This document shows, in pieces, positions 1,169 to 62,664 of a DNA stretch of 64,000 bases. How positions within the stretch are numbered: the stretch's first letter is position 1; each line of letters opens with the position of its first letter. The translations under genes were made by a program, and so were the position numbers. The DNA is taken from assembly GCF_028368995.1 (NCBI RefSeq), contig NZ_JAQNDL010000003.1, forward strand, positions 2,304,001 to 2,368,000, given 5' to 3'. The DNA is from Nannocystis bainbridge. Its GTDB lineage: Bacteria; Myxococcota_A; Polyangia; Nannocystales; Nannocystaceae. Under the pieces are notes generated by a model. That model searched no databases. It had not been told where the DNA came from and was given only the letters and a program-made list of their open reading frames with translations.

Positions 1169-1975
1169 CTAACCTGTCTTTTCAGACATGTCCGAACGGC
1201 CCTGCGCGCGCACCGGCGGGCGCTCCTCGGTGAACAGCCGCAGCGCGAACTGACCGGCGGGGGTCGCCCGCGTGCGCGCGGCCCAGTCCGCGGCCGCGGG
1301 CGTCAGCCGGTCCAGCGGCAGCGGATAGCCGTAGCGCGGGGTCATCAGCGCCGGCCCCGAGAGCGCCGCGAACGTCAGGTCGGCCGCCGTGAAGCGGTCG
1401 CCGACCAGGAAGCGCCGGCCGTCCTGCAGCAGCGCCGCGACCTCGACGTAGATCTCGTCCAGCCGCGCCTGCGAGCGCGCCGTCGGCCCCGGGTACAGCC
1501 CCAACGCCCGCCGCATCAACGCCTGCATCGGCACCGTCAGCAAGCGACCGATCCGCCGCTCCCACGCCGGCCCGGTCGACGTGACCAGGTCGCGCGTCCG
1601 GCCGCGGTCGCCGAACATGTGGGCATAGGCAACCCGCCGCACGGCCGGCCCGAGCGACCGATCGAACAGCGTCACCAGCCGCTCGACCTCGGCGCGCAGC
1701 GCCGGCTCGGCGGGGAACAGCTTGCGCTCGCCCGGCAGGTGCTCGTCGGCGAAGCGGAGGATGTCGCTCGACTCGCCGAGCACACCACGCGGCGTCACCA
1801 GGGCCGGCACGGTGCGCTTGGCACCGGCGGCGCGGTTGGCCGCGAAGTGGAGGATCGGGACGTGGTCGTCCTCGACGTAGTCGAGGCCGGCGTGGTCGAG
1901 GGCCCAGCGGGCCTTCTCGCAGTAGTGGCTGAAGCCGATCGTGATCAGCCGCAGCGGCGCACCCGAGCGGCTCAC
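1169..1975 (-). CDS. Glutathione S-transferase family protein
   Basis: SHYCEKARWALD, TVPAL, ESSDIL, FLVGDRFTAADL; GTG start overlaps the upstream stop (GTGA). Confidence 0.88.
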   Translation of the reverse strand: MSRSGAPLRLITIGFSHYCEKARWALDHAGLDYVEDDHVPILHFAANRAAGAKRTVPALVTPRGVLGESSDILRFADEHLPGERKLFPAEPALRAEVERLVTLFDRSLGPAVRRVAYAHMFGDRGRTRDLVTSTGPAWERRIGRLLTVPMQALMRRALGLYPGPTARSQARLDEIYVEVAALLQDGRRFLVGDRFTAADLTFAALSGPALMTPRYGYPLPLDRLTPAAADWAARTRATPAGQFALRLFTEERPPVRAQGRSDMSEKTG

Positions 1976-2256
1976 GAAGCGGCGGTGAGCTTCTCGAGCT
2001 CCTTGTTCAGCGTCTCCTCGATCTTGCCCTTGAGGGGCGTGAGCATGAAGCCGAGGTCGAGGTTCACGTCGACCTTGCTCTCGCTGATGATCAGCTTGCC
2101 CTCGACGCCGGTCCCCTTGACGTTGAGGGTGCGATCGTCGGCCCACGAGGTCTTGGCCTGGTACTTCTCCTGGAGCTTGGCGCCGAGAGTGGCGATCCGT
2201 TCCTTGATCACGGCGGGCTCGAGGGAGTGATTGCGGGACAGGTTGATCTTCGGCAT
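1972..2256 (-). CDS. Polyhydroxyalkanoic acid system family protein (PHA_gran_rgn-like)
   Basis: 94 aa, MPKINLSRNHSL...GTGVEGKL...LGFMLTPLKGKIEE. Confidence 0.8.
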   Translation of the reverse strand: MPKINLSRNHSLEPAVIKERIATLGAKLQEKYQAKTSWADDRTLNVKGTGVEGKLIISESKVDVNLDLGFMLTPLKGKIEETLNKELEKLTAAS

Positions 2257-2364
2257 CGGCGTGTCTTGATACCAAAAAGGCCGCGGTCCCTGCAAACCGG
2301 CGGCGGTGGGGGCGCCAGGGCGACCGCGGGCTTTCGTCACAAATTTGGCCCGCGGGGCGGCCCC

Positions 2365-3342
2365 GTGGAAGCTGCGGCCGTGCTCCAAAGCGTCAGCGCC
2401 ACCGAGACCGCTCTGCCTCCTTCGGACCTGCGAGTGCCCGCGGACCCGAAGGCAACCGCGCAGGCTCCGGCTGCGGCCCCTCAGTCGGGTCCGGCCCGGG
2501 CCACGAGCGCGCGCGCGGCTACGCCGGCGCAGAAGCCCCTGCCGGAGCCGACCTGGCGCTCGCCCGACAACCGAGCTCGGCTTTACAAGGGCGACTGCCT
2601 CGAGATCTTGGAGCGCGTCCCGGCCGACTCCGTCGACGTGATCTTCGCCGATCCCCCGTACTTCCTCTCGAACGGCGGCAGCACCTGCCGCGCGGGCAAG
2701 CGGACCAGCGTCGACAAGGGCGCGTGGGACAAGTCGAACGGCATCGAGGAGAACCACGCGTTCAACCATCGGTGGCTGAGCGCGTGTCAGCGGGCGCTCA
2801 AGCCCAACGGCACGATGTGGGTCTCGGGCACCAGCCACGTGATCTACTCGGTCGGCTACGCGATGCAGCAGCTCGGCTTCAAGATGCTCAACGAGATCGT
2901 GTGGGAGAAGCCGAACCCGCCGCCGAACCTGTCGTGCCGCTACTTCACGCACGCGACCGAGACGCTGCTGTGGGCGGCCAAGAGCCGCAAGAGCCGGCAC
3001 GTGTTCAACTACGACCGCATGCGCGAGATCAACGACGGCAAGCAGATGAAGTCGGTGTGGCGGTTTACCGCGCCCGGCCAGAAAGAGAAGCTGCTCGGCC
3101 GCCACCCGACGCAGAAGCCCGTGGCCCTGCTCGAGCGCCTGCTGCTCGCCTCCTGCCCCGAGGGCGCCCAGGTGCTCGATCCGTTCAACGGCTCCGGCAC
3201 CACCGGCGTCGCCGCCGTCAGCCTCGGCCACAGCTACATGGGCATCGACCTCGAGCAGGAATACATCGACCTGACCCAGGCCCGCCTGCTCGACGCCGTG
3301 CCCTCCCTGCGCGAGCGACCCGCCCTGCAAGTGGTGCGCTGA
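2365..3342 (+). CDS. Site-specific DNA amino-methyltransferase (N6A/N4C, beta order), no adjacent endonuclease
   Basis: DPPY motif IV precedes HPTQKP and DPFNGSGTTG motif I; Pro/Ala-rich N-terminal extension; start (GTG 2365) uncertain. Confidence 0.9.
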   Translation: MEAAAVLQSVSATETALPPSDLRVPADPKATAQAPAAAPQSGPARATSARAATPAQKPLPEPTWRSPDNRARLYKGDCLEILERVPADSVDVIFADPPYFLSNGGSTCRAGKRTSVDKGAWDKSNGIEENHAFNHRWLSACQRALKPNGTMWVSGTSHVIYSVGYAMQQLGFKMLNEIVWEKPNPPPNLSCRYFTHATETLLWAAKSRKSRHVFNYDRMREINDGKQMKSVWRFTAPGQKEKLLGRHPTQKPVALLERLLLASCPEGAQVLDPFNGSGTTGVAAVSLGHSYMGIDLEQEYIDLTQARLLDAVPSLRERPALQVVR

Positions 3343-3554
3343 ACGTTGTCGCCAGCGCGGGCGCCTCGTCTCGCACCGCGCGCGCCTGCCGAACCGACGA
3401 AGATCTCGGCATCGCGGCAGTGACTCGCGACGCAGCGACGATCTGGCCGTCGCCGCTCGGCCGCCCTGCGCGAGCCGATTAAACGCGAACGGCGGCGATC
3501 GCTCGCCGCCGCGGTCGCTCGCTGTCACGAGCGACCTGTCCCTTCGGACAGGCC

Positions 3555-8616: not shown

Positions 8617-8627
8617 CGCCCGCGGCC

Positions 8628-10730
8628 ATGTCCTCCGCGCCAGCTGGTCCCGAGGACATGGCGAAGACGCCAGGTCCGAAAGGTCCTGTCGCTACGGACA
8701 TGCCCTCCGGGACAGGCGGGATGACGCCGCACGGACGTGACGACCTGTCCACCGGGACAGACGGCATGAGCTCGCGCGCCCGCGAGGCCGCCTCGCCCGA
8801 CCTGTCCTTCGGGACACCCGGCTCCCTGTCCCCGCGGGTCGCCGTGCTCGGCGTCCTCGCCCTGATCGCCCTCGTTCACGTGCCGCTGCTCGGCTTTCAG
8901 TTCGTCTACGACGACGGCTGGACCCTGGTCGCCAACGGGTTCTTGCGCGCGCCGGCCGACCTCGCGCTGCTGTTCTCGCCCGAGGCGATCGCCCGCCACG
9001 TCCCTGACGCCTTCCGGCCCGGCCTCGTCGTCTTCGACCTCCTCGGCTACCAGCTCATCGGCCTGTCCTCCGGCCTGCACCACGCCCTCTCGATCGCCCT
9101 CCACCTGGGCGTCTGCGCCGTCCTGGTCCGCTGGCTGCGCGTGCTCGGGGCCCCCTTCGACCTGGCCCTCGGGACAGCCGCGCTGTTCGGCCTGCTGGCG
9201 ATCCACGCCGAGGCCGTCGCCGTCGTCTCGTACCGCGAGGACCTCCTGGCCGCCCTGCTCGGCCTCGCCGCCGCCCTCGCCGCCTCGCGCCGCCGCCTCG
9301 CCCTCGCCGCCTTCCTGTCTCTCGGGGCATGTTCGATGAAGCTCAGCGCCGGCGCGATCCCGGCGCTGTGGCTGCTCGCCGAGGGCCTCTCGCCGTGGCG
9401 CCCGCGCCCGCCGGTGACCCACCTGCTGCGCGGCGCCCTCGCCCTCGCCCTCGGCGTCGCCGCCGTGATCGCCTACACCTTCGCCCTCTACGGCGCCCTC
9501 GACCCGTACGGCGCAGGCAACCTGCGCGTCTTCAGCCACCGCGTCGGCCTCGGCCCGGTGCTCGCCGCCTCGCTGCCGATCCACCTCGGCTACTTGCAGC
9601 AGATCCTGGTCCCGCTCGGCCTCTCGCCCGAATACACCGACCGCGCCGCCGGCCTCCGCGAGCCCGCGGTGCTGCTGGCCGGCGCCGCCCTGCTCGCGCT
9701 CGCCGGCTACGGCCTCGCCTGCGCCCGCCGTCGCCCGCTGGTGGCCCTGGCGATCCTCGGCGCCTTCGCCCTCGCCCTGCCGACCAGCAACCTGTTCCCG
9801 ATGCCCAACATGCGGGCCGACCGCTTCATGTACCTGCCGAGCGTGCCGGTCTGCCTCGGCCTGGCCGCGCTCTTGCTGACCGCCGGTCGCTGGCTGTCTC
9901 GACATGTCCCCGAGGACATGCGACTGTTCGCCCGCGTCGCCCCGCTGGCCGCCGTGGTGGTCGTCCAGGGCTCGGTGCGCGTGGCCACGGCCGCGGTCTA
10001 CCGCGACAACTCGCACCTGTGGGGCGTGGCCCACGTGCGCGCCCCCGACTCGGCCCGCGCCCTCGCGGTGCTCGGCGAGCTGGTGCTGCGCAACGTCCCT
10101 GCCGACGCCCCGCGCGAGGACAAGGCCCTGGCGTTCGCCCGCGCCGAGGCCCACTGCCGCAACGCCGAGCGCCACGACCCCCGCTACGAGCTGCCGCAGC
10201 TGTGCTTCGCCCGCCTCGCCGCCGCCCGCGAGGACTGGCCCGAGGCCTACCGCCGCTACCAGGCGGCCCTCGCCGTCAGCCCCGACCGCAACGCGGGGAT
10301 CTTCGCCGGCCTCGCCGAGGTGAGCCTCGACCTGCCCGCGACTTCCGAGACGACACGCACGGACCTGGCCCGCCGTCACCTCGCCGAGGGCCTGGCGAGC
10401 TACCCGTACAGCCCGGAGCTGCACGCGACCGCGGGGCGGATCTTCCATCGCCTCGCCGACCCGGAGCAGGCAACGCTCCATTATCAACGGTCCCTCGCGC
10501 TGGCCCCCGAGCGACCCGAAGCCCTGCTCGCGAACATCGAGCTGCTCCTCGACCTCGGACGTCCGACCGCCGCGACCGAGCTCCTGCTCCACGAAAAAAC
10601 CGCCTGGCTCGCCGCCGATCCCGACGATCGGACCGCGCTTGTCGCGCGGCACCGCGACGCCTTGCGGCTGTTCGAACCTTCATCGATACTCTCAGCCGAC
10701 CCCGTCGGAGTCCTCGCCCATGAGCCGTAA
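8628..10730 (+). CDS. TMTC-like GT-C membrane glycosyltransferase with C-terminal TPRs
   Basis: FVYDD luminal motif, FRP, HAEAVAVVSYREDL, ADRFMYLP, C-terminal TPR-like helices; true start may be ATG 8766. Confidence 0.75.
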   Translation: MSSAPAGPEDMAKTPGPKGPVATDMPSGTGGMTPHGRDDLSTGTDGMSSRAREAASPDLSFGTPGSLSPRVAVLGVLALIALVHVPLLGFQFVYDDGWTLVANGFLRAPADLALLFSPEAIARHVPDAFRPGLVVFDLLGYQLIGLSSGLHHALSIALHLGVCAVLVRWLRVLGAPFDLALGTAALFGLLAIHAEAVAVVSYREDLLAALLGLAAALAASRRRLALAAFLSLGACSMKLSAGAIPALWLLAEGLSPWRPRPPVTHLLRGALALALGVAAVIAYTFALYGALDPYGAGNLRVFSHRVGLGPVLAASLPIHLGYLQQILVPLGLSPEYTDRAAGLREPAVLLAGAALLALAGYGLACARRRPLVALAILGAFALALPTSNLFPMPNMRADRFMYLPSVPVCLGLAALLLTAGRWLSRHVPEDMRLFARVAPLAAVVVVQGSVRVATAAVYRDNSHLWGVAHVRAPDSARALAVLGELVLRNVPADAPREDKALAFARAEAHCRNAERHDPRYELPQLCFARLAAAREDWPEAYRRYQAALAVSPDRNAGIFAGLAEVSLDLPATSETTRTDLARRHLAEGLASYPYSPELHATAGRIFHRLADPEQATLHYQRSLALAPERPEALLANIELLLDLGRPTAATELLLHEKTAWLAADPDDRTALVARHRDALRLFEPSSILSADPVGVLAHEP

Positions 10731-16039: not shown

Positions 16040-16890
16040 CGCGGCGCAGCAAGGGCCCCCTCGACCCCGAGGCCCTGCTGCGACTGGGCACCAGCGAGCA
16101 CTACGAAGACCCCGAGCTCTACGACTTCGAGTACCGGGACCACCGCCACGACGTCGCCTGGTACCGCGGCCTCGCCCGCGACCGCGGCCCGCGCCAGCGG
16201 GTCGTCGAGCTCGGCGCCGGCACCGGACGGATCAGCCTCCCGCTGTGTCACGACGGCCACGGCGTCGTCGCCGTCGACCGCATGCCCAGCATGCTCGACC
16301 ACCTGCGGCGCAAGGCCGCCGACCTCCCGAGCGACGTCGCCGCCCGCCTCGAACCTGTCCTCGGGGACATCACCGCGTTGCCGCTGCCCGACGCCAGCGC
16401 CGACCTCGTGTTCGCCCCCTTCAACGTGCTCATGCACCTCTATTCGTGGGAGGACCTGCTGCGCTGCTTCCGCGAGGCCGCGCGCGTGCTCGTGCCCGGC
16501 GGGCGGTTCGCCCTCGACGTCCTCCTGCCCGACCTCGAGTGGCTGACCTGGGACCCCGAGGAGCGCCACAGCGTCACCCACTTCACCCACCCGCGCACCG
16601 GCGCGCCGATGGTCTACTCGACCAATCACCGCTACGACCCGCACACCCAGGTGTGCCACGTCCGGATCTTCTACGACGACGCCCCCAAGCGCCCGCGCGC
16701 CTTCAAGCCGCCGCCCGAGCCGGTCCAGGTCGTCCACCTCGCCCACCGCCAGATCTTCCCCGAAGAGCTGCGCCACCTCGTCGCCGCCGCCGGCCTCGAG
16801 CTCGACAGCCTCGGCGGCAACTTCCGCGGCACCCGCCTCGTCCCCGGCGTCGACTCGCAGTGCGTCCTGTGTACCAAGAGACATGTCTGA
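16036..16890 (+). CDS. Class I SAM-dependent methyltransferase
   Basis: VVELGAGTGR, VAVDR, GDITAL, LVPGGRFALD; GTGA overlap with pcnB. Confidence 0.88.
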   Translation: MTRRSKGPLDPEALLRLGTSEHYEDPELYDFEYRDHRHDVAWYRGLARDRGPRQRVVELGAGTGRISLPLCHDGHGVVAVDRMPSMLDHLRRKAADLPSDVAARLEPVLGDITALPLPDASADLVFAPFNVLMHLYSWEDLLRCFREAARVLVPGGRFALDVLLPDLEWLTWDPEERHSVTHFTHPRTGAPMVYSTNHRYDPHTQVCHVRIFYDDAPKRPRAFKPPPEPVQVVHLAHRQIFPEELRHLVAAAGLELDSLGGNFRGTRLVPGVDSQCVLCTKRHV

Positions 16891-17077
16891 AACGACATGC
16901 TCTTCGGGCCATCTCACTCGCTCGCGGCGCCCGTGAGCTCCAGGCTCGAGCTCCGTCCTCGCTCGCGCTCTCGGGCTCTCGGCTGCTGGCGCGCCGCCCG
17001 CCGAGCCTCGACTCGCTTTACGCGCCGGCCGATCGCTCTGGACCCTCCGCGCCTGCGCCCTCCGCGTCTGTGAGCCC

Positions 17078-18912: not shown

Positions 18913-19181
18913 ATGGACATAGCGAGGAGTTGACCGCCGAGCTCAGGGGCTGCCGCCGCGCCTCGGTCCACGCTGTCTCCGCGCCTCGTCCAGGTTTCGG
19001 TCTCAAGAGACATGTCCTTCGAGACATGTCTCTCGAACCATTTTCGAAACTGTCGCACTGTCCCGACACATGCGCGGCGCGCAGGCAGCCGTCGTCACCG
19101 CGGTCCCTGCTCTCTCCGCGCCTCGTTTAAAACCTGCCTCAAGGGGCATGTCCATCCAGACATGCCCCTTCGAACATGCTT

Positions 19182-22716: not shown

Positions 22717-24480
22717 ATGCAGCAGCCCAAGCCCGGCCTCGCCCTCGCCCTCGTCATCGCGGCCTGCGGCGACGGCGGGGCCGTCATGACCGAAGGGACA
22801 GGTTCGGCCACCACTGGCGGCGAAGCCACCGGCGGCCCGACCGGCGCCTCGACCGGCAGCGAGGGCACCACCGGCGGTCCCACCGACGCCAGCAGCGCGA
22901 CCGCCGGCCCCACCACGGCTACCACCACGGGCCTCACCACCGGCGACCCCACCGACACCGGCGAACCGCCCCCGCCTCCGCCCGCCGGCACCTGCGAAGT
23001 CCCGGTCGAGCTCGCCGACACCGCTCGCCCGACCGCGGTCGTCGGCGACGGCACCCCTGCCAGCTGCACCGAGGCCGCGCTGATCGTCGCCGTCGCCGGC
23101 GGCGGCGTCGTCACCTTCGACTGCGGCGGCCCTGTCACCATCACCCTCGCCCAGCCGCTGAAGGTCACCGGCGACCTCGTCCTCGACGGCGACCACCAGG
23201 TCACCCTCTCGGGCGGCGGCGTCACGCGGATCCTCGACATGGACACCGGCAACTTCGAGGCGCAGGGCCCGAACCTCACCGTCCAGCGCCTGCGCTTCAT
23301 CGACGCCAAAGCCACCGGCACCGAGACCCCGCTCGGCACCGACGTCGACGGCGGCGGCGGAGCCATCTTCCACCTCGGCGGCAACGTCACCGCCATCGAC
23401 AGCACCTTCGAGAACAACGAGGCCGCCACCTGGGGCCCCGACGTCGCCGGCGGCGCCATCTACGGCATCGGCGTCGGCGCCACCACCATCGTCGGCTGCA
23501 CCTTTCACGACAACCGCGCGGCCAACGGCGGCGCCGTCGGGGCGCTGCACACCGCCCTCACGATCGTCAACTCCACCTTCACCGCCAACGAGGCCACCGG
23601 GCGCGGCGCCAACTACATCGACATGATGGGCCAGCAGGCCGGCAACGGCGGCAACGGCGGCGCGATCGTCATGGACGGCAGCGGCCGCGCGCTCGAGATC
23701 TGCGGCGCCACCGTGCAGGGCAACCGCGCCGGCGCCTTCGGGGCCGCGCTGTTCCGCACCGGCTACGAGGGCGAGTCCACGATCATCGATCGCAGCACCT
23801 TCGCCGACAATCAGATCCCCGACCACGACGACGACGCCTCGCCCAGCAGCGGCGCCCTCTACATTCAGGGCACCGCCGTCACCCTCACCAACTCGACCAT
23901 CTCCGGCAACAAGGCCCGCGGCTCCGCCGGCCTGTGGATCCTCGGCCACGGGGCCCAGCCCGCCGTCGCCGACCTCACCAACGTCACCATCACCGGCAAT
24001 TCGACCTGGCCGCAGCCCGAATTCACCATGCGCGGGATCGGTGCCGGCCTCACCATCGGCGACGACACCACCGGCACCCTCCTCAACTGTACGATCGCCG
24101 GCAACGCCGCCCAGTTCGGGTCTGGCATCCTGCGCGTCACCCCGCTCGTGGTCCGCAACACCATCATCAGCAACGACGCCGAGAATCAGTACACCCCGCT
24201 CAATTGCACCGGCTCGATGTTCGCCACTCCGCCGGGCACCGGCGAGCACAACATCCAGTGGCCGACCGGCCCCCAGGACGACATGGACTGCACGCCGGCG
24301 ATCTCCCGCGTCGACCCTCTGCTCGGCGCGCTGGCCGACAACGGCGGCCCGACGCAGACGCTCGCCCCGCTCGCCGGCAGCCCGGCCCTCGCGGCCGGCA
24401 GCGACTGCCCGCCCACCGACCAGCGCGGCGAACCCCGCGGCGACCCGTGCACCATCGGCGCCCTCGAATCAGCCCTGTGA
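22717..24480 (+). CDS. Lipoprotein with parallel beta-helix (Pmp-like GGAI/FxxN repeats) and choice-of-anchor-Q-like C-terminus
   Basis: VIAAC lipobox, Thr/Gly linker, GGAI repeats, LGALADNGGPTQT...DQRG...IGALE. Confidence 0.85.
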   Translation: MQQPKPGLALALVIAACGDGGAVMTEGTGSATTGGEATGGPTGASTGSEGTTGGPTDASSATAGPTTATTTGLTTGDPTDTGEPPPPPPAGTCEVPVELADTARPTAVVGDGTPASCTEAALIVAVAGGGVVTFDCGGPVTITLAQPLKVTGDLVLDGDHQVTLSGGGVTRILDMDTGNFEAQGPNLTVQRLRFIDAKATGTETPLGTDVDGGGGAIFHLGGNVTAIDSTFENNEAATWGPDVAGGAIYGIGVGATTIVGCTFHDNRAANGGAVGALHTALTIVNSTFTANEATGRGANYIDMMGQQAGNGGNGGAIVMDGSGRALEICGATVQGNRAGAFGAALFRTGYEGESTIIDRSTFADNQIPDHDDDASPSSGALYIQGTAVTLTNSTISGNKARGSAGLWILGHGAQPAVADLTNVTITGNSTWPQPEFTMRGIGAGLTIGDDTTGTLLNCTIAGNAAQFGSGILRVTPLVVRNTIISNDAENQYTPLNCTGSMFATPPGTGEHNIQWPTGPQDDMDCTPAISRVDPLLGALADNGGPTQTLAPLAGSPALAAGSDCPPTDQRGEPRGDPCTIGALESAL

Positions 24481-24631
24481 GACTTGCATGCGCCTTGGAA
24501 CATGTTCAATCGAACATGTCCAAAACGCCATGCCATCATTCCCAGCGCCGCGGGACATGTCCATTCAGACATGTCCCGCGCGCCAGCTACGCATTCACCA
24601 GCGATGACCCGCGCGGATCATCGCCCCGCCG

Positions 24632-26363: not shown

Positions 26364-26484
26364 TTTTACCGATCTCAGGGACATGCTCTAAAAACCATGC
26401 TCGTTAGCACATGTCCATGTGAACATGTCCTCGAGGACATCTGGTCCCGCCGCCCGGCGACGGTCCCGAGGCGTCCCCCGCCAT

Positions 26485-30730: not shown

Positions 30731-30750
30731 TCACGGGCTGTCCCGGAGAG

Positions 30751-30810
30751 CATGCCCTCCGGGACATGCTCTTCACGACATGACCGAACAGACATGCCTC
30801 GAAAGGCATG
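30751..30810. repeat. Array of CATG-core palindromes with 14-bp period (representative of a dispersed family)
   Basis: CATG at 30751, 30765, 30779, 30793, 30807, between convergent genes. Confidence 0.9.
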
Positions 30811-30822
30811 TCCATAAGCGCA

Positions 30823-40370: not shown

Positions 40371-41534
40371 ATGCCGGAAGTCCCAGCCCGCGTCCACAAC
40401 CTCCCGGCCGCGCGCGCCCAGTTCGGCGACCTCATCGGCCGACTCCTGCCCGCCTTCGAGCGCGCCGACCCGCTCGCCGACGCGGCCGCGGCCTGGCTCT
40501 CGACCTGTCCCGAAGGACATGCCGTCTTCGCCGCCGCGCTGACCGACCCCGGGCGCGCCCCCGAGCCCGTCGCTGCCTTGCTCGAGTCGGTCGCCGGTCT
40601 GCCCGCGTGGGTCGAGCCCGACCGGCTCGCGCGCGCCAGCCACCTGTTCTCGCGGGCGGGTGTGGTCGGCGGCTTCGTGCTCGGCCTGCGCTCGCTCGTC
40701 CTTGGCTACGCCGCCCCGGCCGGCAACAAGCCGCTGGCCTTCAGCGGTCGCCTGCGCGAGGCCGCCCCGCGGCGGCTCGCCGAGACCGCCCGCTTCGTCA
40801 CCGCCGTGTGCGAGCCTGGCGGCCTGCTGCCTGGCGGCGAGGGCCGGGCCATCGCCCTGCACGTGCGCCTCATGCACGCCCAGGTGCGGCGCCTGCTGCT
40901 CGCCACCGGTCGCTGGGACAGGGCCGCCTGGGCCGTGCCGATCAACCAGCACGACATGCTCGCCACCAGCCTCCTCTTCAGCCACACCTACCTCGACGGC
41001 CTGCGCCTGCTCGGCCTCCAGATCGGCGCTGACGAGGCCGACGACTACGTCCACCTGTGGCGCCTGGCCAGCTGGATCCTCGGCGTCGACGACGAGCTCG
41101 TGCCTGACCGCGAGCCTGCCGCGCGGCGCCTCGCCGAGTGCATCTTCCTCACCCAGGGCCCGCCTGACGCCGACTCCCGGGCCCTCACCGCGGCCCTGCT
41201 CCAGGCCCCGCTGCAGGCCGCGCGCACCCCTCGCGAGCGGAAGATCGCCGCCGCGCGCGTGCGCATCAGCGGCAGCCTTTGCCGCCACCTCGTCGGCCAC
41301 GGCGTCGCCGACGCGCTCGGCGTCCCCTCCGAGCGCCACCCCTTCTCGATCCCCTTGCTCGCCTCCGTGTTCGGCGGCCTCGACCGCCTGCGCGCCGTCC
41401 TCCCCCCGCTCGACGCCTCCGCCGTCGCCCTCGGCCGCCGCTACTGGGACCTCGTCGTCGAGGTCGGCCTCGACGGCGAGCGCCCGACCTACCCCATGCC
41501 CGAGCGCCTCGGTCGCCGCCCCACCGCCGCCTGA
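40371..41534 (+). CDS. ER-bound oxygenase MpaB / Lcp-like (DUF2236) protein
   Basis: DPLAD, RRLAETARF, VRLMHAQVR, PINQHDM. Confidence 0.85.
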   Translation: MPEVPARVHNLPAARAQFGDLIGRLLPAFERADPLADAAAAWLSTCPEGHAVFAAALTDPGRAPEPVAALLESVAGLPAWVEPDRLARASHLFSRAGVVGGFVLGLRSLVLGYAAPAGNKPLAFSGRLREAAPRRLAETARFVTAVCEPGGLLPGGEGRAIALHVRLMHAQVRRLLLATGRWDRAAWAVPINQHDMLATSLLFSHTYLDGLRLLGLQIGADEADDYVHLWRLASWILGVDDELVPDREPAARRLAECIFLTQGPPDADSRALTAALLQAPLQAARTPRERKIAAARVRISGSLCRHLVGHGVADALGVPSERHPFSIPLLASVFGGLDRLRAVLPPLDASAVALGRRYWDLVVEVGLDGERPTYPMPERLGRRPTAA

Positions 41535-43087: not shown

Positions 43088-43310
43088 ACCTGGCCGCGGG
43101 CCCGTTGCGACGATCCCTGCGACTCGCTCGCGCGGGCAAGGAGCGACGGCGAGTGCGCGCCGCATCCGGAGCGAGGTCAGCCTCGCCTCGTCCCGAGATG
43201 GCCGTCGAGTTACTTCGAGTCACGTGACTCGCCGTGACGCCGTCGCCCTAAAGGACATGTTTTAATAGACATGTCTTTCGGAGCACGCCCTTAAGAGCAT
43301 GTCCTTTAGA

Positions 43311-43970
43311 CTAGTCGCAGGCGACCGTCACCAGCGCGGCCTCGCCCTCGATCGTCGGCGCCGCCCCGCTGGTGCACACCGTCACGCTCGCCGATTCGCC
43401 GTCGACCGTCACGCTCGCATGCTCGGCCGTCAGGCGTGACGCGCCGACGTGGGCCATGTCGGACGCCGCGATCGTCACCTCCGGCCCTGCGCCGGCCAGC
43501 GTCACCCGGCTCGCGTCGCGGGCGACCACCGTCGCCGCGATCTCGGTCAGTTCGCTCGCCTCGACCAGGCTCGCCAGCTCGGCCTCGATCGCCAGCGCTC
43601 CGCTGGCCCCGAGCACGCGCACCACCGCACGGTCGGACGCGAACACCCCGACCAGCGCCGGCACCTCGAGCGTCACCGTCGGCTTCAGCGTCAGCTCCTG
43701 ACGCAGGTTGGGATCGGCCGCGATCGACAGCACCCCGTCGCCGTGGACCTCGGTGAACAGCCGCCCGAGCGCGTTTGCGTCGCCGGTCACGCGCAGCGTC
43801 ACGTCGGCCTCCGGGTCGAGCTCGGGCCGCACCGTCACCGTCACCTCGAAGTCGTCGAACACCTCGATCTGGGCCAGCGGCGGCACCGTGCGCTCCGCCT
43901 CCGCGGGGGTCCCGTCGCCCTTCAGTTCACAGCCCGCCAGCAGCGCGAGCGTCGCGATGGTCCTGCGCAC
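43311..43970 (-). CDS. GIN / DUF2807-like lipoprotein
   Basis: LALLAGC lipobox; VTGDAN..., repeated beta-strand units. Confidence 0.65.
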   Translation of the reverse strand: MRRTIATLALLAGCELKGDGTPAEAERTVPPLAQIEVFDDFEVTVTVRPELDPEADVTLRVTGDANALGRLFTEVHGDGVLSIAADPNLRQELTLKPTVTLEVPALVGVFASDRAVVRVLGASGALAIEAELASLVEASELTEIAATVVARDASRVTLAGAGPEVTIAASDMAHVGASRLTAEHASVTVDGESASVTVCTSGAAPTIEGEAALVTVACD

Positions 43971-53259: not shown

Positions 53260-53299
53260 GAATCACTCGTCGACCTCTTCCTTTCTTAAAAAGATACGA

Positions 53300-53382: not shown

Positions 53383-53433
53383 GTATTCGTGTCACTCGTA
53401 CCCCTCAGGCCGTCCGTGGCCTGATATGGGGGA

Positions 53434-53508
53434 TCGGGGCAGCGGGATTCGAACCCACGACCTTCTGTGCCCAAGACAGACGCTCTGACCAGGCTGAGCT
53501 ACGCCCCG
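53434..53508 (-). tRNA. tRNA-Pro(TGG), no CCA
   Basis: CGGGGCG/TGCCCCG-A; GCTC-AGCCTGGTCA-GAGC; TCTGT-CTTGGGC-ACAGA; GTGGG-TTCGAAT-CCCGC. Confidence 0.92.
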
Positions 53509-57771: not shown

Positions 57772-58734
57772 ATGCGACACTGGCGAATCTGCGCAGCTAT
57801 CATGGTTTCGTCTCCTCTCTTCGCGGGGTGTGACGACCCCGAGATCGAGGACACCCGACTCCGCCCCTACAATTGCCCCACATGGCAATGTGGATTTAAC
57901 GCCGCCGACCTCAATGGTCGCTCGATCCGCGAGCTCAACCTCGACGGCGAGCCCAACAGCGACGGCGTGCGCATCGTCGGCTTTGTCGCGCCGCTGGGCC
58001 TGCTGGGCGGCTACAAGCTCGACACCGACGGTGACGCGCTGATCGCCCGAAACGCCCAGGGCAAGACGCTCAAGGGCGCGCAGCTGTTCGGCGCAATCAT
58101 CTTCGTCCGCAAGGACGGCCCGCTCGAGCTGCCGATCCCGCTGACGGTGCTCGGTTATCAGGAGGTCGACGCCTGGGCCGACGGCGCGGCCAAGGTCCCG
58201 ACGTACACCATCGTGTACCCCGACGTCGGCGCGCTGCTGGGAGTGCGCAATGTTTGCAGCGGCGACCTGGTCGACGCCCTCGCCAGCGCGGTCACGGTCA
58301 TCTCCGACGAGACCTATGATTTGACGCAAAAAACCGTCAATCCCGGGCAGCGGCGCTGGCTCACCCTCGCGTGCGCGGGCTCGGCCGCCGCCAAGATGCG
58401 GCTGATGAACTACAGCCCGCACACCGACTTCGACGGCCAGGGCCACGCCTCGAGCGTGGCGCAGCGCCAGGCGACCCTCAAGATGATCACCGCCGACTAC
58501 TGCGGCACCGGGCACAGCTATACCGCCAACGGCACGCCGCTGCAGTGGGAGAACCAGGACGGCACCGTCGCCTCGCCTGGCCCCTACGGCGCCGTCGAGG
58601 CGATCTGGACCGCCTCCGGGGCGGCGTGTCTCGACGCCACGCGCCTCCCCGACGTCGAGGTCCCGTGTGCCCTGCCCTCGTGCTCCGAGTACGACGGCCC
58701 GGCCGGCGAGTGGTCGACCTTCGTGCCCGACTGA
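57772..58734 (+). CDS. ADYC-domain lipoprotein, paralog 1
   Basis: LFAGC lipobox; CPTWQCGFN; LACAGSAAAKM; RQATLKMITADYCGTG.SYT.NGT. Confidence 0.85.
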   Translation: MRHWRICAAIMVSSPLFAGCDDPEIEDTRLRPYNCPTWQCGFNAADLNGRSIRELNLDGEPNSDGVRIVGFVAPLGLLGGYKLDTDGDALIARNAQGKTLKGAQLFGAIIFVRKDGPLELPIPLTVLGYQEVDAWADGAAKVPTYTIVYPDVGALLGVRNVCSGDLVDALASAVTVISDETYDLTQKTVNPGQRRWLTLACAGSAAAKMRLMNYSPHTDFDGQGHASSVAQRQATLKMITADYCGTGHSYTANGTPLQWENQDGTVASPGPYGAVEAIWTASGAACLDATRLPDVEVPCALPSCSEYDGPAGEWSTFVPD

Positions 58735-58897
58735 CGTCTCTTGCGCGCACGCTCGCAGCCGGCACCCCACAATCGACCGGGCCCGGCGGCGGCTTCGCAC
58801 CTCGACGCACGTCTCGCGGGCCGCCGCGGCGCCCGCCACAGACACCCCCCGTGGCCGCCGTTCGCCCGCATCCTCCGGCGGGCCTCACAGTGGGAGC

Positions 58898-59902
58898 ATG
58901 ACATCAGCGACCATCCCGCTCCGGCGGTTATGCGGTGGCGTCGGCGCGATCGCGGCGCTCGTCGCCGGCTGCGTCGAACCCGGGCTCGAGGCTGACATCG
59001 ACGCCGACATCGACGCCGACATCGAGGCGCGCCCGTATCATTGCCCTGTCTGGCAGTGCGGCTTCAACTCGGCCGAGGTCAACGGCCGATCGATCCGCGA
59101 GCTCAACCTCGACGGCCTCGCCAACGCCGACGGCGTGCGCATGATCGGCTTTATCGCCCCCGCCGGCCTCTTCGGCAATTACAGGCTCGATTTCGCCGGC
59201 GACGAATTGATCGCCCGCAACGCCGGCGGCAAGGTCCTGCGCGGTAATCAGTTGGTCGGCGCGACGATCCTCGTCAAGAAGCCGGGCCTCCTGTCCTTGC
59301 CGCTGCCGATCACCATCATCGACTATCAGGAGATCGACGGCTGGGCCGCGGGCGCCGGCAAGGTCCCGGCCTACGCGATGCTCTACCTCGACCTCGAGTC
59401 GCTGCTCGGCGTGCGCAACGTGTGCAACGGCGACCTGCTCGACGTCCTCACCACCGCGGCCACCGTGCTCGGCGGCGAGACCTACGACCTCGACGCCAAG
59501 ACCGTCGAGCCCGGGCGCGACCGGTGGTTGACGATCGCCTGCGCCGGCTCGGCCGCGGCCAAGATGCGGCTGATGAACTACGGCCCGCACGGCGACTTCG
59601 ACGGCGACGGCCACCCTGCCAGCGTCGCCCAGCGCCAGGCCACCCTCAAGATGATCACCGCCGACTATTGCGGCCACGGCGACAGCTATACCGGCAACCA
59701 TATTCCGCTGCAGTGGGAGAACAGCGGCGGCACCGTCGTCTCGCCCGGCCCGTGGGGCCTCCCCGAGGCGATCTGGGGCCCTGGCGGCGCGCTCTGCCTC
59801 GACGCCACCCGGCTCGACGACGCCGACGTCGCCTGCCCCCTCCCGGCCTGCGACGCCTTCACGCTCGACGACGGCGAGTGGGCGACCTTCGTCCCCGACT
59901 GA
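58898..59902 (+). CDS. ADYC-domain lipoprotein, paralog 2
   Basis: LVAGC; CPVWQCGFN; RQATLKMITADYCG. Confidence 0.85.
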   Translation: MTSATIPLRRLCGGVGAIAALVAGCVEPGLEADIDADIDADIEARPYHCPVWQCGFNSAEVNGRSIRELNLDGLANADGVRMIGFIAPAGLFGNYRLDFAGDELIARNAGGKVLRGNQLVGATILVKKPGLLSLPLPITIIDYQEIDGWAAGAGKVPAYAMLYLDLESLLGVRNVCNGDLLDVLTTAATVLGGETYDLDAKTVEPGRDRWLTIACAGSAAAKMRLMNYGPHGDFDGDGHPASVAQRQATLKMITADYCGHGDSYTGNHIPLQWENSGGTVVSPGPWGLPEAIWGPGGALCLDATRLDDADVACPLPACDAFTLDDGEWATFVPD

Positions 59903-60132
59903 CGCACCGATCGCCCGGGTCCGCCCAAAGATCTCGCCAGCGGGCGAGCGGAGGGCAATGTCATGACATGTCCTTTACGCCATGTCTTGGACACGGAGCC
60001 GCCCGCGCACGCTCGCCTGCGATCGCGCCGCGCGGACCGCCCGCCGGCCGCGGGCGGGCTGGACGGCGCGCAGGCGCATCTGCGATCCGGGCCACATGGC
60101 ACCGCGGCGCGAATGCGGCCACCCCTCCGGCC

Positions 60133-60874: not shown

Positions 60875-61444
60875 ATGCAAGCCGTCCGCGACATCGAGGT
60901 CCCCGTGGTCCCGGCCTCCCGAGAGGCCGTGGCCGACTATGGCCTCTACATCGGCACCGAGGTCCCCCAGGCCGGCCTCGGCATCCCCTTCTACAAGGGG
61001 GCCGTCGAAGAGGGCCATAACTTCGCCTTCAAGTGCAACGGCCGCTGCGTCATCCGCTCGGCCCGCATCCACCGCCGCCAGCCCGAGATCACCTGGCTCG
61101 AGCGGCACATGAACATGACCCAGCTGTTCGTCGGCCTCGGCGACCAGCCGTTCGCCATGGTCCTCGGCAAGCCGACCCACCAGCGCGGCATGGACACCCC
61201 CGACCTCGACGACGTGCGCTGCTTCGTCCTCCCGCCAGGCAGCGGCGTCATGATCCACGAGGGCACCTGGCACGACTTCCCGCTCGCCGTCGAAGGCCCC
61301 GTCACCGTGCTCACCGCCAACTCCGAAGAGGTCGTCGAGGCGCTCGCCAGCATGCGCGAGCCGGCCGAGATGGCCCACGGCGACGTGTTCAAGCTCGACA
61401 TCCGCAAGCGCCTCGGCGCCCAGCTGCGCGCGGTGCTGTTCTGA
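60875..61444 (+). CDS. Ureidoglycolate lyase (AllA)-like cupin
   Basis: WLERHMNMTQLF, GVMIHEGTWH.FP. Confidence 0.75.
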   Translation: MQAVRDIEVPVVPASREAVADYGLYIGTEVPQAGLGIPFYKGAVEEGHNFAFKCNGRCVIRSARIHRRQPEITWLERHMNMTQLFVGLGDQPFAMVLGKPTHQRGMDTPDLDDVRCFVLPPGSGVMIHEGTWHDFPLAVEGPVTVLTANSEEVVEALASMREPAEMAHGDVFKLDIRKRLGAQLRAVLF

Positions 61445-62538
61445 TGCGCGTCGACGCCTTCAAGCTGCCCACCGACGGCCCCGCCGACGTGCGCGGGCTG
61501 CAGGCCCTGCTCGACGACGGGGTCGTGCGCGCCGACCGGCTGGTGTGCGTGCTCGGCAAGACCGAGGGCAACGGCGGCCGCAACGACTTCACCCGCGACC
61601 TCGCCATGCGCGCGCTCGAGGACCTGCTGGCCCCGCGCCTCGGCCTGCCGCCGGCGCGCGTGCAGGACCGCGTGGTGTTCTCGCTGTCGGGCGGGACCGA
61701 GGGGCTCGTCTCGCCGCACGTGGTGGTGTTCGCCCGCTCCGGCACCTGGTCCAAAGAACCTGGCCCGAAGCGCATGGTCGTCGGGACAGCTCACACGCGG
61801 CCGTTCACGCCGGCGGAGATCGGGCGCACGCCGCAGATCGAGGAGACCGCGCGCGCGGTGGCCGAGCTGGCGAGCGAGCTGCGCCTGGCGCCGGCCGACG
61901 TCCACCTCGTGCAGATGAAGGGCGCGATCCCGAAGGCCGACCACGAGGCCACGCTGGCCGCCCGCCGCGCCGGCGCCCCGCTGCGCAACGACATGGTCCA
62001 CTCGCGGGCCGCCAGCGCCCTCGGCGTGGCCCTCGCCCTCGGCGAGGTCACCCGCGCCGACCTCTCCGACGACGTCGTCTGCGACGACTGGTCGCTCTAC
62101 TCCGGCGTCGCCTCGTGCTCGGCCAAGCCCGGCCTACAGCGCACCGAGATCCTCATGTTCGGCAACAGCGACCGCGCGAGCGGCGACCTGGTCGTCGGTC
62201 ACACTGTCCTCAAGGACATCCTCGACGTCGACGCCGTGCGCGCCCTGCTCGCCGAGCTCGGCCTGCCCGTGGCCGGCGGCCAGCTAACCCCCGAGCAGCG
62301 CGCCCGCGTCGTCGGCGTGTTCGCCAAGAGCGAGGCCGACCCCCGCGGATCGATCCGCGGCCGCCGCCACACCATGCTGTCCGACGACGACATCGACGAC
62401 ACCCGCCACTCCCGCGCCGCCCTCGCAGCCGTGCTCGCCAGCGTCGTCGGCGACCCCTGCATCTACGTCAGCACCCGCGCCGAACACCACGGCCCCCTCG
62501 GCGGCGGCCCGCTGGCGATCATCGCCCGCGCCCCGTGA
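61444..62538 (+). CDS. Ring-opening amidohydrolase (cyanuric acid hydrolase / barbiturase family)
   Basis: GKTEGNG..NDFTR, SGGTEG.VSPH, VQMK, SRAASALG, ASCSA, RRHTML.D, AEHHGP.GGGP; TGATG coupling. Confidence 0.92.
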   Translation: MRVDAFKLPTDGPADVRGLQALLDDGVVRADRLVCVLGKTEGNGGRNDFTRDLAMRALEDLLAPRLGLPPARVQDRVVFSLSGGTEGLVSPHVVVFARSGTWSKEPGPKRMVVGTAHTRPFTPAEIGRTPQIEETARAVAELASELRLAPADVHLVQMKGAIPKADHEATLAARRAGAPLRNDMVHSRAASALGVALALGEVTRADLSDDVVCDDWSLYSGVASCSAKPGLQRTEILMFGNSDRASGDLVVGHTVLKDILDVDAVRALLAELGLPVAGGQLTPEQRARVVGVFAKSEADPRGSIRGRRHTMLSDDDIDDTRHSRAALAAVLASVVGDPCIYVSTRAEHHGPLGGGPLAIIARAP

Positions 62539-62604
62539 GCTCGGCGCGCCGACTCACCCGCGCCGCGGAAGCGCCGGACCGGCGGCGACGGCAGTCCTCA
62601 GGGA

Positions 62605-62664
62605 CATGCCCGACAGAACATGCCCGACAGGACATGACCGATCGAGCATGCCCGATCGGTCATG
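62605..62664. repeat. Array of CATG-core palindromes with 14-bp period
   Basis: CATG at 62605, 62619, 62633, 62647, 62661, between convergent genes. Confidence 0.9.

Follow-up and report, generated by a model that had tools for sequence, protein, structure and literature searches.

Exactly phased arrays of a 14-bp palindromic word at gene ends in Nannocystis, a possible lattice for a dimeric DNA-binding protein

The window analysed here, a 64,000-nucleotide stretch of the Nannocystis bainbridge genome (contig NZ_JAQNDL010000003.1, positions 2,304,001 to 2,368,000), carries arrays in which a 14-bp word with two-fold symmetry, TGYCC-N4-GGRCA, is repeated head to tail, the CA of one unit and the TG of the next meeting in a CATG junction. 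The sequence-only reading had placed CATG, CCTG and CAGG cores at 14-bp spacing, and these were confirmed: CATG at 16882/16896, 19011/19025, 19147/19161/19175, 24487-24529, 24556/24570, 26382-26424, 30751-30807, 43256/43270, 59967/59981 and 62605-62661, and the in-register variants CCTG/CAGG at 1173/1201 and 8671/8685/8713. The features are as follows.

1175..1202, 2-unit array (TGTCTTTTCAGACA TGTCCGAACGGCCC) with CCTG at 1173 and 1201 as bounds; near-identical counterpart at the orthologous place in relative G003
8645..8714, degenerate 5-unit array, junctions CATG/CAGG/CCTG/CATG
8746-8759 and 8803-8816, single words 3' of the 8645..8714 array
16870..16911, 3-unit array, unit 2 apparently containing the TGA stop of the upstream reading frame; G003 and G010 carry arrays here too, with partly alignable units
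18999..19040, 3-unit array, 87 nt past the stop of gene 18445-18912 (+ strand, GNAT acetyltransferase)
19135..19176, 3-unit array, separated by 6 nt from the stop of ORF 19182-21683 (- strand)
24475..24530, 4-unit array; the stop of gene 22501-24480 (+ strand) lies in unit 1, at 24478-24480
24544..24585, 3-unit array, one base off the register of the 24475..24530 array (CATG-to-CATG 69 nt)
26370..26439, 5-unit array; orthologous arrays of 3 units in G003, 4 in G001 and 5 in G010, with different linkers
30739..30822, 6-unit array filling a convergent gap; 8 nt separate it from the stop of the + strand gene 28592-30730, and it directly abuts that of the - strand gene 30823-33036; G003 counterpart with 5 units and other linkers
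41549-41562 and 41574-41587, two single words, out of register, 15 nt past the stop of the + strand gene 39633-41534
43244..43313, 5-unit array, 3-nt overlap with the stop of the - strand gene 43311-44045
59955..59996, 2-3-unit array, approximately 55-65 nt past the stop of the + strand gene 58667-59902
62593..62676, 6-unit array with convergent genes on either side, flush with TCA (reverse-strand stop) at 62677-62679; counterparts of 3 units in G003, exactly filling TGA-G-...-TCA, and 5 units in G001
40506..40519, single in-gene word (TGTCCCGAAGGACA), identical in G003, G001 and G010
32758, 51555, 29281, 29782, 49032 and 50270, other in-gene single words

CATG-N10-CATG pairs numbered 22 in the window compared to 0.59 ± 0.73 in 100 dinucleotide shuffles, none of which reached 22, and TGYCC-N4-GGRCA was found 22 times compared to 0.28 ± 0.49. 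When the distances between CATG sites in the window were counted, lag 14 gave 22 pairs versus 0-3 at lags 10-13 and 15-27. In the 11-Mb genome, CATG recurred 3736, 2073 and 1586 times at lags 14, 28 and 42, respectively, compared to approximately 70-130 at lags other than multiples of 3 (about 100 at lags neighbouring 14), PWM matches above 8 bits recurred 3562 times at lag 14 versus 27 and 28 times at lags 13 and 15, and arrays of at least three units numbered 1142 versus 1-4 at the control periods 11, 13, 15, 16 and 17. The step between successive strong sites was 14 nt in 1530 cases, 13 nt in one and 15 nt in none. The linker, initially described as 4-6 nt, turned out to be exactly 4 nt: the word matched 2828 times in the genome with an N4 spacer, versus 23-93 times with spacers of 2, 3 and 5-8 nt.

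Among 919 units picked solely for strong neighbours on both sides, the letters of the CATG junction were the best conserved of the lattice (T0 0.90, G1 0.96, C12 0.96, A13 0.90), flank positions reached 0.63-0.77, and the linker was nearly free. Neighbouring linkers in arrays were identical in 3.3% of cases versus 1.1% at random. Since the register is exact despite differing linkers and adjacent linkers are rarely identical, the units are not recent slippage copies, and indels are nonetheless excluded. The array profile is strand-symmetric, and the T after an array mirrors the A before it, showing that there is no T-tract. Multiples of three were not preferred among unit numbers, an observation that was counted against a protein-based reading of the arrays.

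Such a word might be self-propagating or maintained by drive without any host function, an explanation we consider improbable. It could be a REP-like or miniature mobile repeat surviving where it is least harmful, behind genes, or an uptake-signal-like word accumulating by biased DNA uptake and recombination; in this explanation the arrays are merely the densest packing of overlapping copies. Direct and inverted near-duplicate units (3.2% versus 1.1% and 1.7% versus 1.0%, respectively), which reflect local duplication within arrays, speak for it, as do the differences in unit number between species and the 28 of 801 strict arrays that lie inside coding-like ORFs. However, array copies could not be aligned to a master element, array ends are sharp and bear no terminal repeats (the second unit beyond the array has 3.93/10 matches versus a background of 3.43), and a search for a Y1/RAYT transposase in G000 (90% complete) found none.

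Array starts lie 0-10 nt behind stop codons. That many of them lie at the 3' ends of genes, often where two genes converge, was noticed already in the sequence-only reading and holds genome-wide: among gaps of 60-300 bp, a site with at least 9/10 matches was present in 412/603 convergent (68%), 323/1223 tandem and 49/434 divergent gaps (11%). Arrays are rare in short, operon-like gaps, occurring in 0-6% of tandem gaps below 100 bp and 12-18% of those above 150 bp. The median distance was 25 nt to the upstream stop and 257 nt to the next start, and 5 nt in convergent gaps; among 945 gene-end adjacencies of 1423 clusters, the offset from the stop peaked at −3 (84), +2 (76) and +3 (59). Genes were called roughly, from GC3-based ORFs (6389 calls, 75-78% of the genome covered), which was also counted against the protein reading. 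With regard to a drive-maintained word, harmlessness alone would leave unexplained why arrays sit flush with the upstream stop and not anywhere in long tandem gaps.

The main rival explanation is an RNA-level gene-end element, which we regard as somewhat unlikely. Here the transcribed array would fold into one or more hairpins, in which adjacent units pair over up to 10 bp around a 4-nt loop, and would act by termination without a U-tract or, more likely, by blocking 3'-to-5' exonucleases, thereby setting and stabilising the mRNA 3' end, a role also proposed for REP elements and for the mycobacterial TRIT motif; the conserved stem would possibly be recognised by a factor. According to passages of the report on the TRIT ('Tuberculosis Rho-independent terminator') motif of Mycobacterium, that motif occurs in 147 copies, each one longer stem-loop, is genus-restricted, sequence-conserved and palindromic, hence bidirectional, is very narrowly distributed at stop codons and makes up the majority of the strongly folded gene ends; the authors suspected that the conserved stem is read by a factor (PMC3152330). 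The tightness of the arrays against stop codons resembles this narrow distribution, and on the description in those passages both are restricted, conserved palindromes that dominate the folded gene ends; the Nannocystis element differs in its 14-bp word, its phased arrays of up to approximately 8 units, its number (1142 arrays and, in addition, single copies in the thousands) and its phylum.

A TRIT-like RNA role fits the location of the arrays equally well, since they hold most of the gene-end folding potential. Convergent gaps with the word had a median folding z of −3.9 (85% below −2), versus −0.86 (21% below −2) for those without it, and in the window z ranged from −3 to −8.4 in 5 of 6 arrays. 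Single arrays folded with −18 to −55 kcal/mol; as RNA, the 19135..19176 array gave a 12-bp stem at −23 kcal/mol (z −5.9). That arrays are the dominant folded element at gene ends was counted against the protein reading. Canonical terminator-like sites were not clearly enriched (7 versus 3.9 ± 2.1), a palindrome would serve both converging transcripts, and the self-complementary CATG would let a unit pair with either neighbour, which could explain conservation without covariation. Sense-strand mismatches were more often G:U-compatible than A:C (450 versus 323), likewise counted against the protein reading; this excess fits the prediction of RNA selection but would equally be expected from deamination of the non-template strand. 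Canonical intrinsic terminators likewise place hairpin-forming sequence just past the stop at unit ends, bidirectionally between converging genes; in contrast to the arrays, they have a U-tract, lack multiple phased units and combine free sequence with conserved pairing, whereas in the arrays the sequence is fixed.

Selection seems to act on the word, not on pairing, because real arrays folded hardly better than chimeras built of units borrowed from other arrays (−0.415 versus −0.397 kcal/mol/nt, i.e. 4.5% better, and better in only 55% of 400 arrays sampled from 801). Array-specific complementarity beyond the shared consensus was thus almost nil, and stem covariation was weak (odds ratios 1.26, 1.34 and 1.23). 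The G:C pairs of the word are less well conserved than the CATG with its A and T letters, which is not what selection for stem stability would give. Moreover, the arrays have no U-tract, independent hairpins would need no exact 14-nt register, and just 4/102 tRNA genes are followed by an array within 150 nt. ORF calls also contain approximately 1000 slowly evolving single words; a terminator placed there would do damage, and a hairpin of 5 bp would be weak.

The in-gene words amount to 1039 of the 2828 strict matches, and the in-frame spacer control N7 gave 23 matches genome-wide. Single in-gene copies evolve more slowly than flanking synonymous sites: third-codon positions were identical in 92.5% (98/106) within half-sites versus 82.1% (945/1151) in flanks (odds ratio 2.7, p = 0.0045), for 22 sites of one window, ascertained in G000 alone and compared with related genomes that are not independent. 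At orthologous gene ends, three relatives keep arrays with different unit numbers and linkers; for the 24475..24530 array, no counterpart was found between BLAST anchors in G003 or G001, by an anchor method that gave one false negative. The persistence of word and register under linker replacement, together with the slow half-sites, points to purifying selection, although drive could mimic it. In favour of drive, a 6.1-kb G000-specific segment, absent from three relatives, lacks the word; no site with at least 9/10 matches lies between 32771 and 40506, versus approximately 7 expected from 57 sites per 64 kb.

The array system is limited to the large-genome Nannocystis group, with several thousand copies. 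DUS of Neisseria and USS of Pasteurellaceae are likewise clade-specific short words, over-represented by orders of magnitude in genic and intergenic sequence, and their intergenic copies are often paired as hairpins behind genes. The Nannocystis word, many-fold over-represented in and between genes of one clade, matches this picture, which again favours drive; however, DUS and USS are neither palindromic nor stacked in a fixed register. REP/BIME elements of enterobacteria and pseudomonads are short extragenic palindromes with copy numbers in the hundreds to thousands, clustered in arrays and enriched behind genes and between converging genes, where they are bound by IHF, gyrase and Pol I and stabilise upstream mRNA. 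The Nannocystis element shares the many short palindromic copies, the location and the clustering, but its unit is 14 bp instead of approximately 35 bp, it keeps an exact register in which 18-bp palindromes overlap and have CATG in common, its orientation does not alternate because the word itself is two-fold symmetric, it has many conserved in-gene copies, and the search for a RAYT/Y1 transposase was negative. The first impression that the arrays are unlike REPs was only partly right, since the location is REP/BIME-like. That the element was undescribed is consistent with our searches, in which Rfam gave no match and the literature no relevant description; none of the described repeat families matches it.

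A methylation or modification landmark had also been proposed, in which CATG (RCATGY) junctions would be clustered targets of a methyltransferase or a methyl-reading protein; it gained no support and is very unlikely. CATG is indeed the lattice's most conserved part, enzymes recognising CATG and RCATGY exist, and the under-representation of GCATGC cores (odds ratio 0.49) could reflect an enzyme on that hexamer. However, CATG is not required for the word, since single words outside arrays mostly end in CCTG/CAGG, and no enzyme is linked to the word. The sole DNA methylase in the window, an N6_N4 methylase (2227-3339), is common to array-less genera. No reader of the arrays was found, and this methylase, the only candidate tested, occurs in 19/31 genomes, among them every one of the family's 8 other genera, all of which lack arrays.

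The reading we prefer, with a probability of roughly 0.4, is that the arrays are a lattice for a putative dimeric, sequence-specific DNA-binding protein at transcription-unit ends. It is favoured by the conserved letters with a free linker, the weak covariation, the small folding advantage over chimeric arrays, the near-absence of out-of-register neighbours, the strand symmetry, the position at unit ends and the conserved in-gene copies, and the clade restriction is as expected for a clade-limited reader. The cooperative sites for an abundant dimeric protein, already suggested from the letters, are partly supported: the evidence, which is indirect, leans towards dyad-symmetric, sequence-specific reading in a fixed register, but no protein was identified. 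Ribbon-helix-helix operators (MetJ met-boxes, omega-protein heptads) and plasmid centromere iterons consist of abutting short units in exact register; each unit binds one dimer, neighbouring dimers touch, and cooperativity is lost when the spacing changes. They offer an analogy for a possible mechanism, not membership, as their units are 7-12 bp and occupy one or few loci per replicon, in promoters or centromeres, compared to approximately 1100 loci behind genes in Nannocystis.

We infer the protein, its polymerisation and its effect on transcription as follows. The putative dimer would read the word on duplex DNA, with single copies, also those in genes, serving as ordinary binding sites. On abutting words, neighbouring dimers would come into contact and polymerise at the exact 14-bp spacing, each rotated by approximately 120 degrees relative to the last, so that three units would span approximately 4 helical turns. 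Up to approximately 7-8 units would form a high-occupancy block right behind the stop codon. Between neighbouring units this block may halt or insulate transcription or set the DNA topology, and between converging genes it would act in both directions. As part of this same tentative reading, the arrays may serve as punctuation at transcription-unit ends in the Nannocystis clade.

In the window, the 14-bp spacing of CATG cores reported by the sequence-only reading was found at the places it cited, and its frequency was far above that in shuffled sequence: CATG-N10-CATG occurred 22 times versus 0.59 ± 0.73 in 100 dinucleotide-preserving shuffles, and the two-fold-symmetric word TGYCC-N4-GGRCA 22 times versus 0.28 ± 0.49 in shuffles (an example run of units, at 62602–62670, is GGGACATGCCCGACA GAACATGCCCGACA GGACATGACCGATC GAGCATGCCCGATC GGTCATGTCC). 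The genome-wide scan for CATG pairs at lag 14 that the same reading had proposed was carried out on the whole assembly (G000; 11.05 Mb in five contigs, C1–C5, 71.5% G+C, with the window at C2:2304001–2368000), and gave 3736, 2073 and 1586 pairs at lags 14, 28 and 42, respectively, versus about 70–130 at lags that are not multiples of three. Matches above 8 bits to a weight matrix of the 10-bp core formed 3562 pairs at lag 14, whereas lags 13 and 15 had 27 and 28, respectively. By chaining the weight-matrix matches at lag 14 or 28, 1142 arrays of at least 3 units were called in G000, versus 1–4 when the same procedure was run with control periods of 11, 13, 15, 16 and 17. Arrays occur on all contigs at a mean of 10.3 per 100 kb (variance 31), and a few stretches of 100–200 kb have none. 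Chains of 2 to 9 CATGs numbered 1265, 328, 213, 159, 75, 22, 2 and 1, with a single chain of 12; since these counts are not geometric, the distribution has a shoulder at 4–6 and a sharp stop near 100 bp. A 42-bp superperiod of three units was considered and rejected, unit counts showing no preference for multiples of 3. The GC skew of the assembly is very strong (about −0.05 to −0.13 on C1, C2 and C5, about +0.03 to +0.14 on C4 and most of C3), and the two points at which it switches sign, one near C3:1.5 Mb and the other where C1 ends, are probable replication landmarks.

The repeat can be read as TGYCC-N4-GGRCA or as GGRCATGYCC, both of which are strongly enriched in G000 (2828 copies of the former versus 23–93 with spacers of 2, 3 and 5–8 nt; 1771 copies of the latter versus 28–78 with 1–3 nt inserted). 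The linker, described earlier as 4–6 nt, is thus exactly 4 nt. Beyond the last CATG on each side there is normally one more whole, weaker unit (mean 7.38 of 10 matches), and the next position past it scores only 3.93 of 10 against a background of 3.43, an abrupt stop, indicating that the building block is the 14-mer TGYCC-N4-GGRCA placed head to tail, with CATG as the junction. In an unbiased profile of 919 units, selected solely by strong neighbours on both sides, the best-conserved letters were those of the junction (T0 0.90, G1 0.96, C12 0.96, A13 0.90), followed by the inner stem letters (0.63–0.77), and the four linker positions were nearly free. Isolated words are mostly TGTCC/GGACA (Y = T in 91%, R = A in 92%) and have C[C/A] and [G/T]G as neighbours, which explains the CCTG and CAGG cores of the sequence-only reading. 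Successive strong sites lie 14 nt apart in 1530 cases, 13 nt apart once and 15 nt apart never. An array is in effect a series of 18-bp palindromes that overlap through a shared self-complementary CATG. Within array cores, GCATGC is rarer than ACATGT, ACATGC and GCATGT (odds ratio 0.49, p = 7.5e-21 in G000), which may reflect avoidance of the hexamer. The 10-bp core RRRCATGYYY has the same consensus as the p53 half-site, almost certainly by coincidence; the p53 case illustrates that a single protein fold is able to read two abutting 5-bp quarter-sites of such a kind.

Genes were called as GC3-rich ORFs (6389, covering 75–78% of the contigs), a crude set in which starts are over-extended and small genes are missed. 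The 1301 convergent gaps contain 457 of the 1142 arrays, the 3783 tandem gaps 372 and the 1300 divergent gaps 43; another 269 arrays are inside ORF calls, and one is at a contig edge. When arrays were restricted to those with at least 3 exact CATGs in phase (801 in G000), 687 were intergenic, a further 48 were within 90 nt of the 5′ end of an ORF call that is probably over-extended, and only 28 had coding-like flanks on both sides. One of these 28 is a 7-unit array at C3:1013325–1013413 in a coding-like, membrane-protein-like ORF, where it reads as a 14-residue peptide repeat (..RAWPMDHVSSDMTV..). At gap lengths of 60–300 bp, convergent gaps carried the word (at least 9 of 10 matches) in 412 of 603 cases, tandem gaps in 323 of 1223 and divergent gaps in 49 of 434, and the frequency of arrays in tandem gaps was 0–6% below 100 bp and up to 12–18% in longer ones. 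The placement at gene 3′ ends, often between convergent genes, that had been noted from the window therefore holds genome-wide: the median distance of an array is 5 nt from the nearer stop in convergent gaps, and in tandem gaps 25 nt from the upstream stop and 257 nt from the next called start. The commonest offsets from the gene end were −3 (84), +2 (76) and +3 (59) (945 gene-end adjacencies, 1423 clusters), where −3 means that the first unit begins with the stop codon itself (TGA or TAG). In the window, the following arrays are flush with stop codons.

Arrays flush with stop codons in the window
19135–19176: array
30739–30822: array
43244–43313: array
62593–62676: array

Of the 102 tRNA genes, only 4 are followed by an array within 150 nt and none is preceded by one. 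The window itself carries five tRNA genes on the minus strand at 52727–53508, three of which form a 110-bp tandem repeat whose copy number seems to vary among relatives, judging by multiple overlapping BLAST alignments. Relatives often have extra genes exactly where arrays sit; for instance, in G007, a related genome, the orthologue of the 30739 gap (locus L012) holds an extra small gene whose ATG start codon falls on an array CATG (..AAGCATGAGTCGC..). Promoter-side arrays were considered as an autoregulatory clue to the reader of the word, and this was abandoned because missed genes contaminated the 57 'divergent' cases too heavily.

The window is syntenic with three Nannocystis relatives (G003, G001 and G010) at about 80–93% identity, and counterparts of its arrays at orthologous gene ends were as follows.

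Window arrays and their counterparts in relatives
1175: G003 counterpart nearly identical
16870: array at the same gene end in G003 and G010
26370: kept in all three relatives, with 3, 4 and 5 units
30739: 5 units in G003 versus 6 in G000
62593: 3 units in G003, exactly filling TGA-G-...-TCA; 5 units in G001

Orthologous arrays differ in unit number and in nearly all linkers. For the 24475 arrays no counterpart was found in the anchor-bounded intervals of G003 and G001, nor for the 18999/19135 pair in that of G003, by an anchor method that missed the 62593 array of G003. Neighbouring linkers match exactly in 3.3% of cases (1.1% at random), and near-copies (at least 12 of 14 identical) make up 3.2% of direct unit pairs within arrays versus 1.1%, and 1.7% of inverted pairs versus 1.0%. 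By these frequencies, units duplicate occasionally and the majority are old. Retention of the 14-nt register despite linker turnover points to selection on spacing. Among the matches listed, short and low-depth soil-metagenome contigs over 16500–33500 of the window had no indel of a multiple of 14 nt at arrays, and one contig over 18750–19563 (X1 record 3) was identical across two arrays; neither observation bears on unit dynamics. Beside the array at 26370–26439 lie tandem repeats (26494–26791; periods of 51–57 bp and 99 bp, up to 4.8 copies) that probably encode a low-complexity protein.

The word is also found inside genes, with 1039 of the 2828 strict copies in ORF calls (the in-frame spacer control N7 has 23 genome-wide), and the in-gene words of the window use all three reading frames. 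Conservation was evaluated at 22 in-gene words of the window in 30 pairs, using only ungapped alignments that span the site and leaving out the words in a 48-bp tandem repeat (19800–20250) and in a doubtful ORF (8600–8850); because relatives were compared with each other, ascertainment of the sites in G000 does not bias the result. Third-codon identity was 92.5% (98/106) in half-sites, 82.1% (945/1151) in flanks and 78.4% in linkers (half-sites versus flanks, odds ratio 2.7, p = 0.0045). With a small sample and related genomes, this slower evolution of half-sites is supportive, not conclusive. The 48-bp repeat (19865–20137, 5.7 copies, 91% matches) contains one perfect word per copy (TGTCCCCAAGGACA or TGTCCCGAGGGACA) and sits in a long minus-strand ORF call (19182–21683) that has no Pfam match.

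A clade-specific and strongly over-represented word (2828 versus 23–93) that occurs in genes (1039) as well as between them resembles the DUS/USS words, and the arrays might represent a word maintained by drive or by selfish spread, a reading that we regard as unlikely. A segment of about 6.1 kb (33565–39724), which encodes a WD40/caspase-domain protein (33802–37332) and neighbouring genes, is present in G000 and replaced by 18–447 bp in G003, G001 and G010; between 32771 and 40506 no word (at least 9 of 10 matches) was found where about 7 were expected, which fits a word that accumulates solely in long-resident DNA. An IS110-family transposase (PF01548 and PF02371; 11535–12503) lies in a stretch (10911–12705) that is replaced by about 180–340 bp in G003 and G010, with single words near both of its sides (11564 and 12576). 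That this element targets the word was considered and dropped, as its borders aligned ambiguously with the empty site in G003.

The survey across myxobacteria suggested by the sequence-only reading located the arrays mainly in part of a single genus. When four phased RCATGY were used as the query, 407 occurrences were counted in G000, 183–220 in five genomes of the same genus of 12–13 Mb, and 0–2 in five smaller ones (4.5–9.1 Mb, 64–88% complete). The family's 8 other genera and 12 further families of the class had 0, as did every genome compared when the pattern was run backwards as a control. In 200-kb samples of G000, G003 and G001, TGTCC-N4-GGACA ranked first among interrupted palindromes (20- to 41-fold), and equal samples of G009 (same genus) and G011 (another genus) had neither the word nor any other strongly enriched interrupted palindrome. 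In a scan of one genome per prokaryote species, 76 of 80 among the matches listed were Nannocystis-titled records (exedens, pusilla, punicea, radixulma, sp. and MAGs), and two were typical-looking arrays in unclassified myxobacterial MAGs, one of them directly after TGA. The remaining two of the 80 listed, from an alphaproteobacterial MAG and a Nocardiopsis (L083 and L105), are simple tandem repeats of identical units, unlike the Nannocystis arrays.

We assign a probability of roughly 0.4 to the reading in which a protein forms a lattice on the duplex DNA of the arrays, where transcription units end. A TRIT/REP-like RNA element is a tentative alternative (TRIT, 'Tuberculosis Rho-independent terminator' motif), and the two models can be combined, with one factor recognizing the word either as DNA or as an RNA stem. 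Single-strand folding of window arrays gave z of −3.0 to −8.4 in five of six, a stable hairpin as in intrinsic terminators; unlike these, the hairpins of the arrays are not directly followed by a U-tract. In convergent gaps the median folding z was −3.9 with the word (120 sampled of 316) and −0.86 without it (all 114), and in divergent gaps −0.21 (120 sampled of 238); the difference between gaps with and without the word indicates that the word supplies most of the folding potential at gene ends. TRIT is likewise described as providing most gene-end folding potential in Mycobacterium and as restricted to that genus (PMC3152330). The likeness to TRIT is one of behaviour only, namely a narrow position at the stop codon, palindromic structure and genus restriction.

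On several grounds, base pairing in itself seems to be under little selection. Stem positions covary weakly (odds ratios 1.26, 1.34 and 1.23). Real arrays fold at −0.415 kcal/mol/nt versus −0.397 for chimeras of units taken from other arrays, the real array being better in 55% (400 sampled of 801; p = 0.009), and stems of at least 12 bp occur in 28% of real arrays versus 22% of chimeras. The A/T-containing CATG is kept better than the G:C pairs. No T-tract follows the arrays: in the 213 arrays whose orientation was set from the upstream gene, T frequencies after the array (0.44, 0.10, 0.35, then about 0.15–0.25) mirror those of A before it (0.38, 0.10, 0.37). Sense-strand mismatches were more often of the G:U type (450) than of the A:C type (323) in 213 arrays of at least 3 units after a gene in a tandem gap, an excess that was not counted because it is equally expected from replication skew and from non-template-strand deamination.

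In location the arrays are like REP/BIME elements, being extragenic and enriched behind genes and between convergent genes (687 of 801 strict arrays intergenic), so that the earlier statement that they are unlike REPs does not stand in this respect; it does stand for the unit and for the associated transposase. A REP/BIME unit is an imperfect palindrome of about 20–40 nt whose copies align as one family, whereas the unit here is 14 bp with a free 4-nt linker, and orthologous arrays cannot be aligned beyond the consensus. A RAYT (Y1, IS200-IS605-type transposase, PF01797) gave no match in six frames of G000 (90.5% complete) and gave matches in 6 of 14 control genomes, and without it the element does not pass as a REP-RAYT system. 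The distinction from slippage repeats and CRISPR was borne out: a VNTR is rejected by the low frequencies of identical adjacent linkers (3.3%) and of near-copy unit pairs (3.2%), and a CRISPR array, with repeats of 25–40 nt and unique spacers of similar length, by the 10-bp core and 4-nt linker. A MITE, with terminal inverted repeats, target duplication and alignable copies, is rejected since the arrays end sharply after a whole unit; past the ends there is no further shared sequence, and copies differ in unit number and all linkers. The arrays were thus not recognized as fragments of a known MITE or REP family.

As far as sources could be consulted, the element is also undescribed, as had been supposed. 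At gathering score, the only Rfam families in the 64-kb window were 5 tRNAs. The literature on palindromic repeats of myxobacteria or Nannocystis, as covered by the matches listed outside subscription journals, did not contain it, the text of the N. exedens DSM 71 genome announcement (PMC5658511) makes no mention of palindromes, terminators or intergenic elements, and no Nannocystis transcriptome study was among the matches listed. Sequencing runs matching the window included no RNA run, the best being soil-metagenome DNA contigs.

Under the favoured reading, a predicted lattice-forming dimeric protein would read the 14-bp word, stacked in exact register behind stop codons, and the lattice would act as a bidirectional protein terminator or insulator. 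The wider proposition is at present doubtful: a clade of Nannocystis would mark the boundaries of its transcription units by a dedicated system specific to one DNA sequence, in which such a protein largely replaces hairpin-plus-U-tract terminators. It would be a bacterial counterpart of the DNA-bound roadblock terminators that are known from mitochondria and eukaryotic rDNA. An N6_N4 DNA methylase in the window (2227–3339, PF01555), next to the tsf/pyrH housekeeping genes, was rejected as a clade-specific factor: it is conserved in the family and beyond (19 of 31 related genomes), and all 8 genera of the family that lack arrays have it. From this distribution it looks like a housekeeping methylase. 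The further idea that the arrays are a methylation landmark seems very improbable.

How transcription units end in high-GC bacteria with few canonical terminators is an open problem, and one fixed word in a fixed register at about two thirds of converging gene pairs offers an experimentally tractable signal in cultivable strains, such as those of N. exedens, N. pusilla, N. punicea and N. radixulma. The word is useful as a mark for annotating gene ends in Nannocystis genomes, which are rich in natural-product genes, and calls for caution in heterologous expression of Nannocystis gene clusters. If the word is read by a protein, it would represent a novel type of gene-end machinery in bacteria as well as a novel DNA-binding lattice; if the RNA acts, it would be, after TRIT, a second independent, genus-specific and sequence-fixed terminator-like motif.
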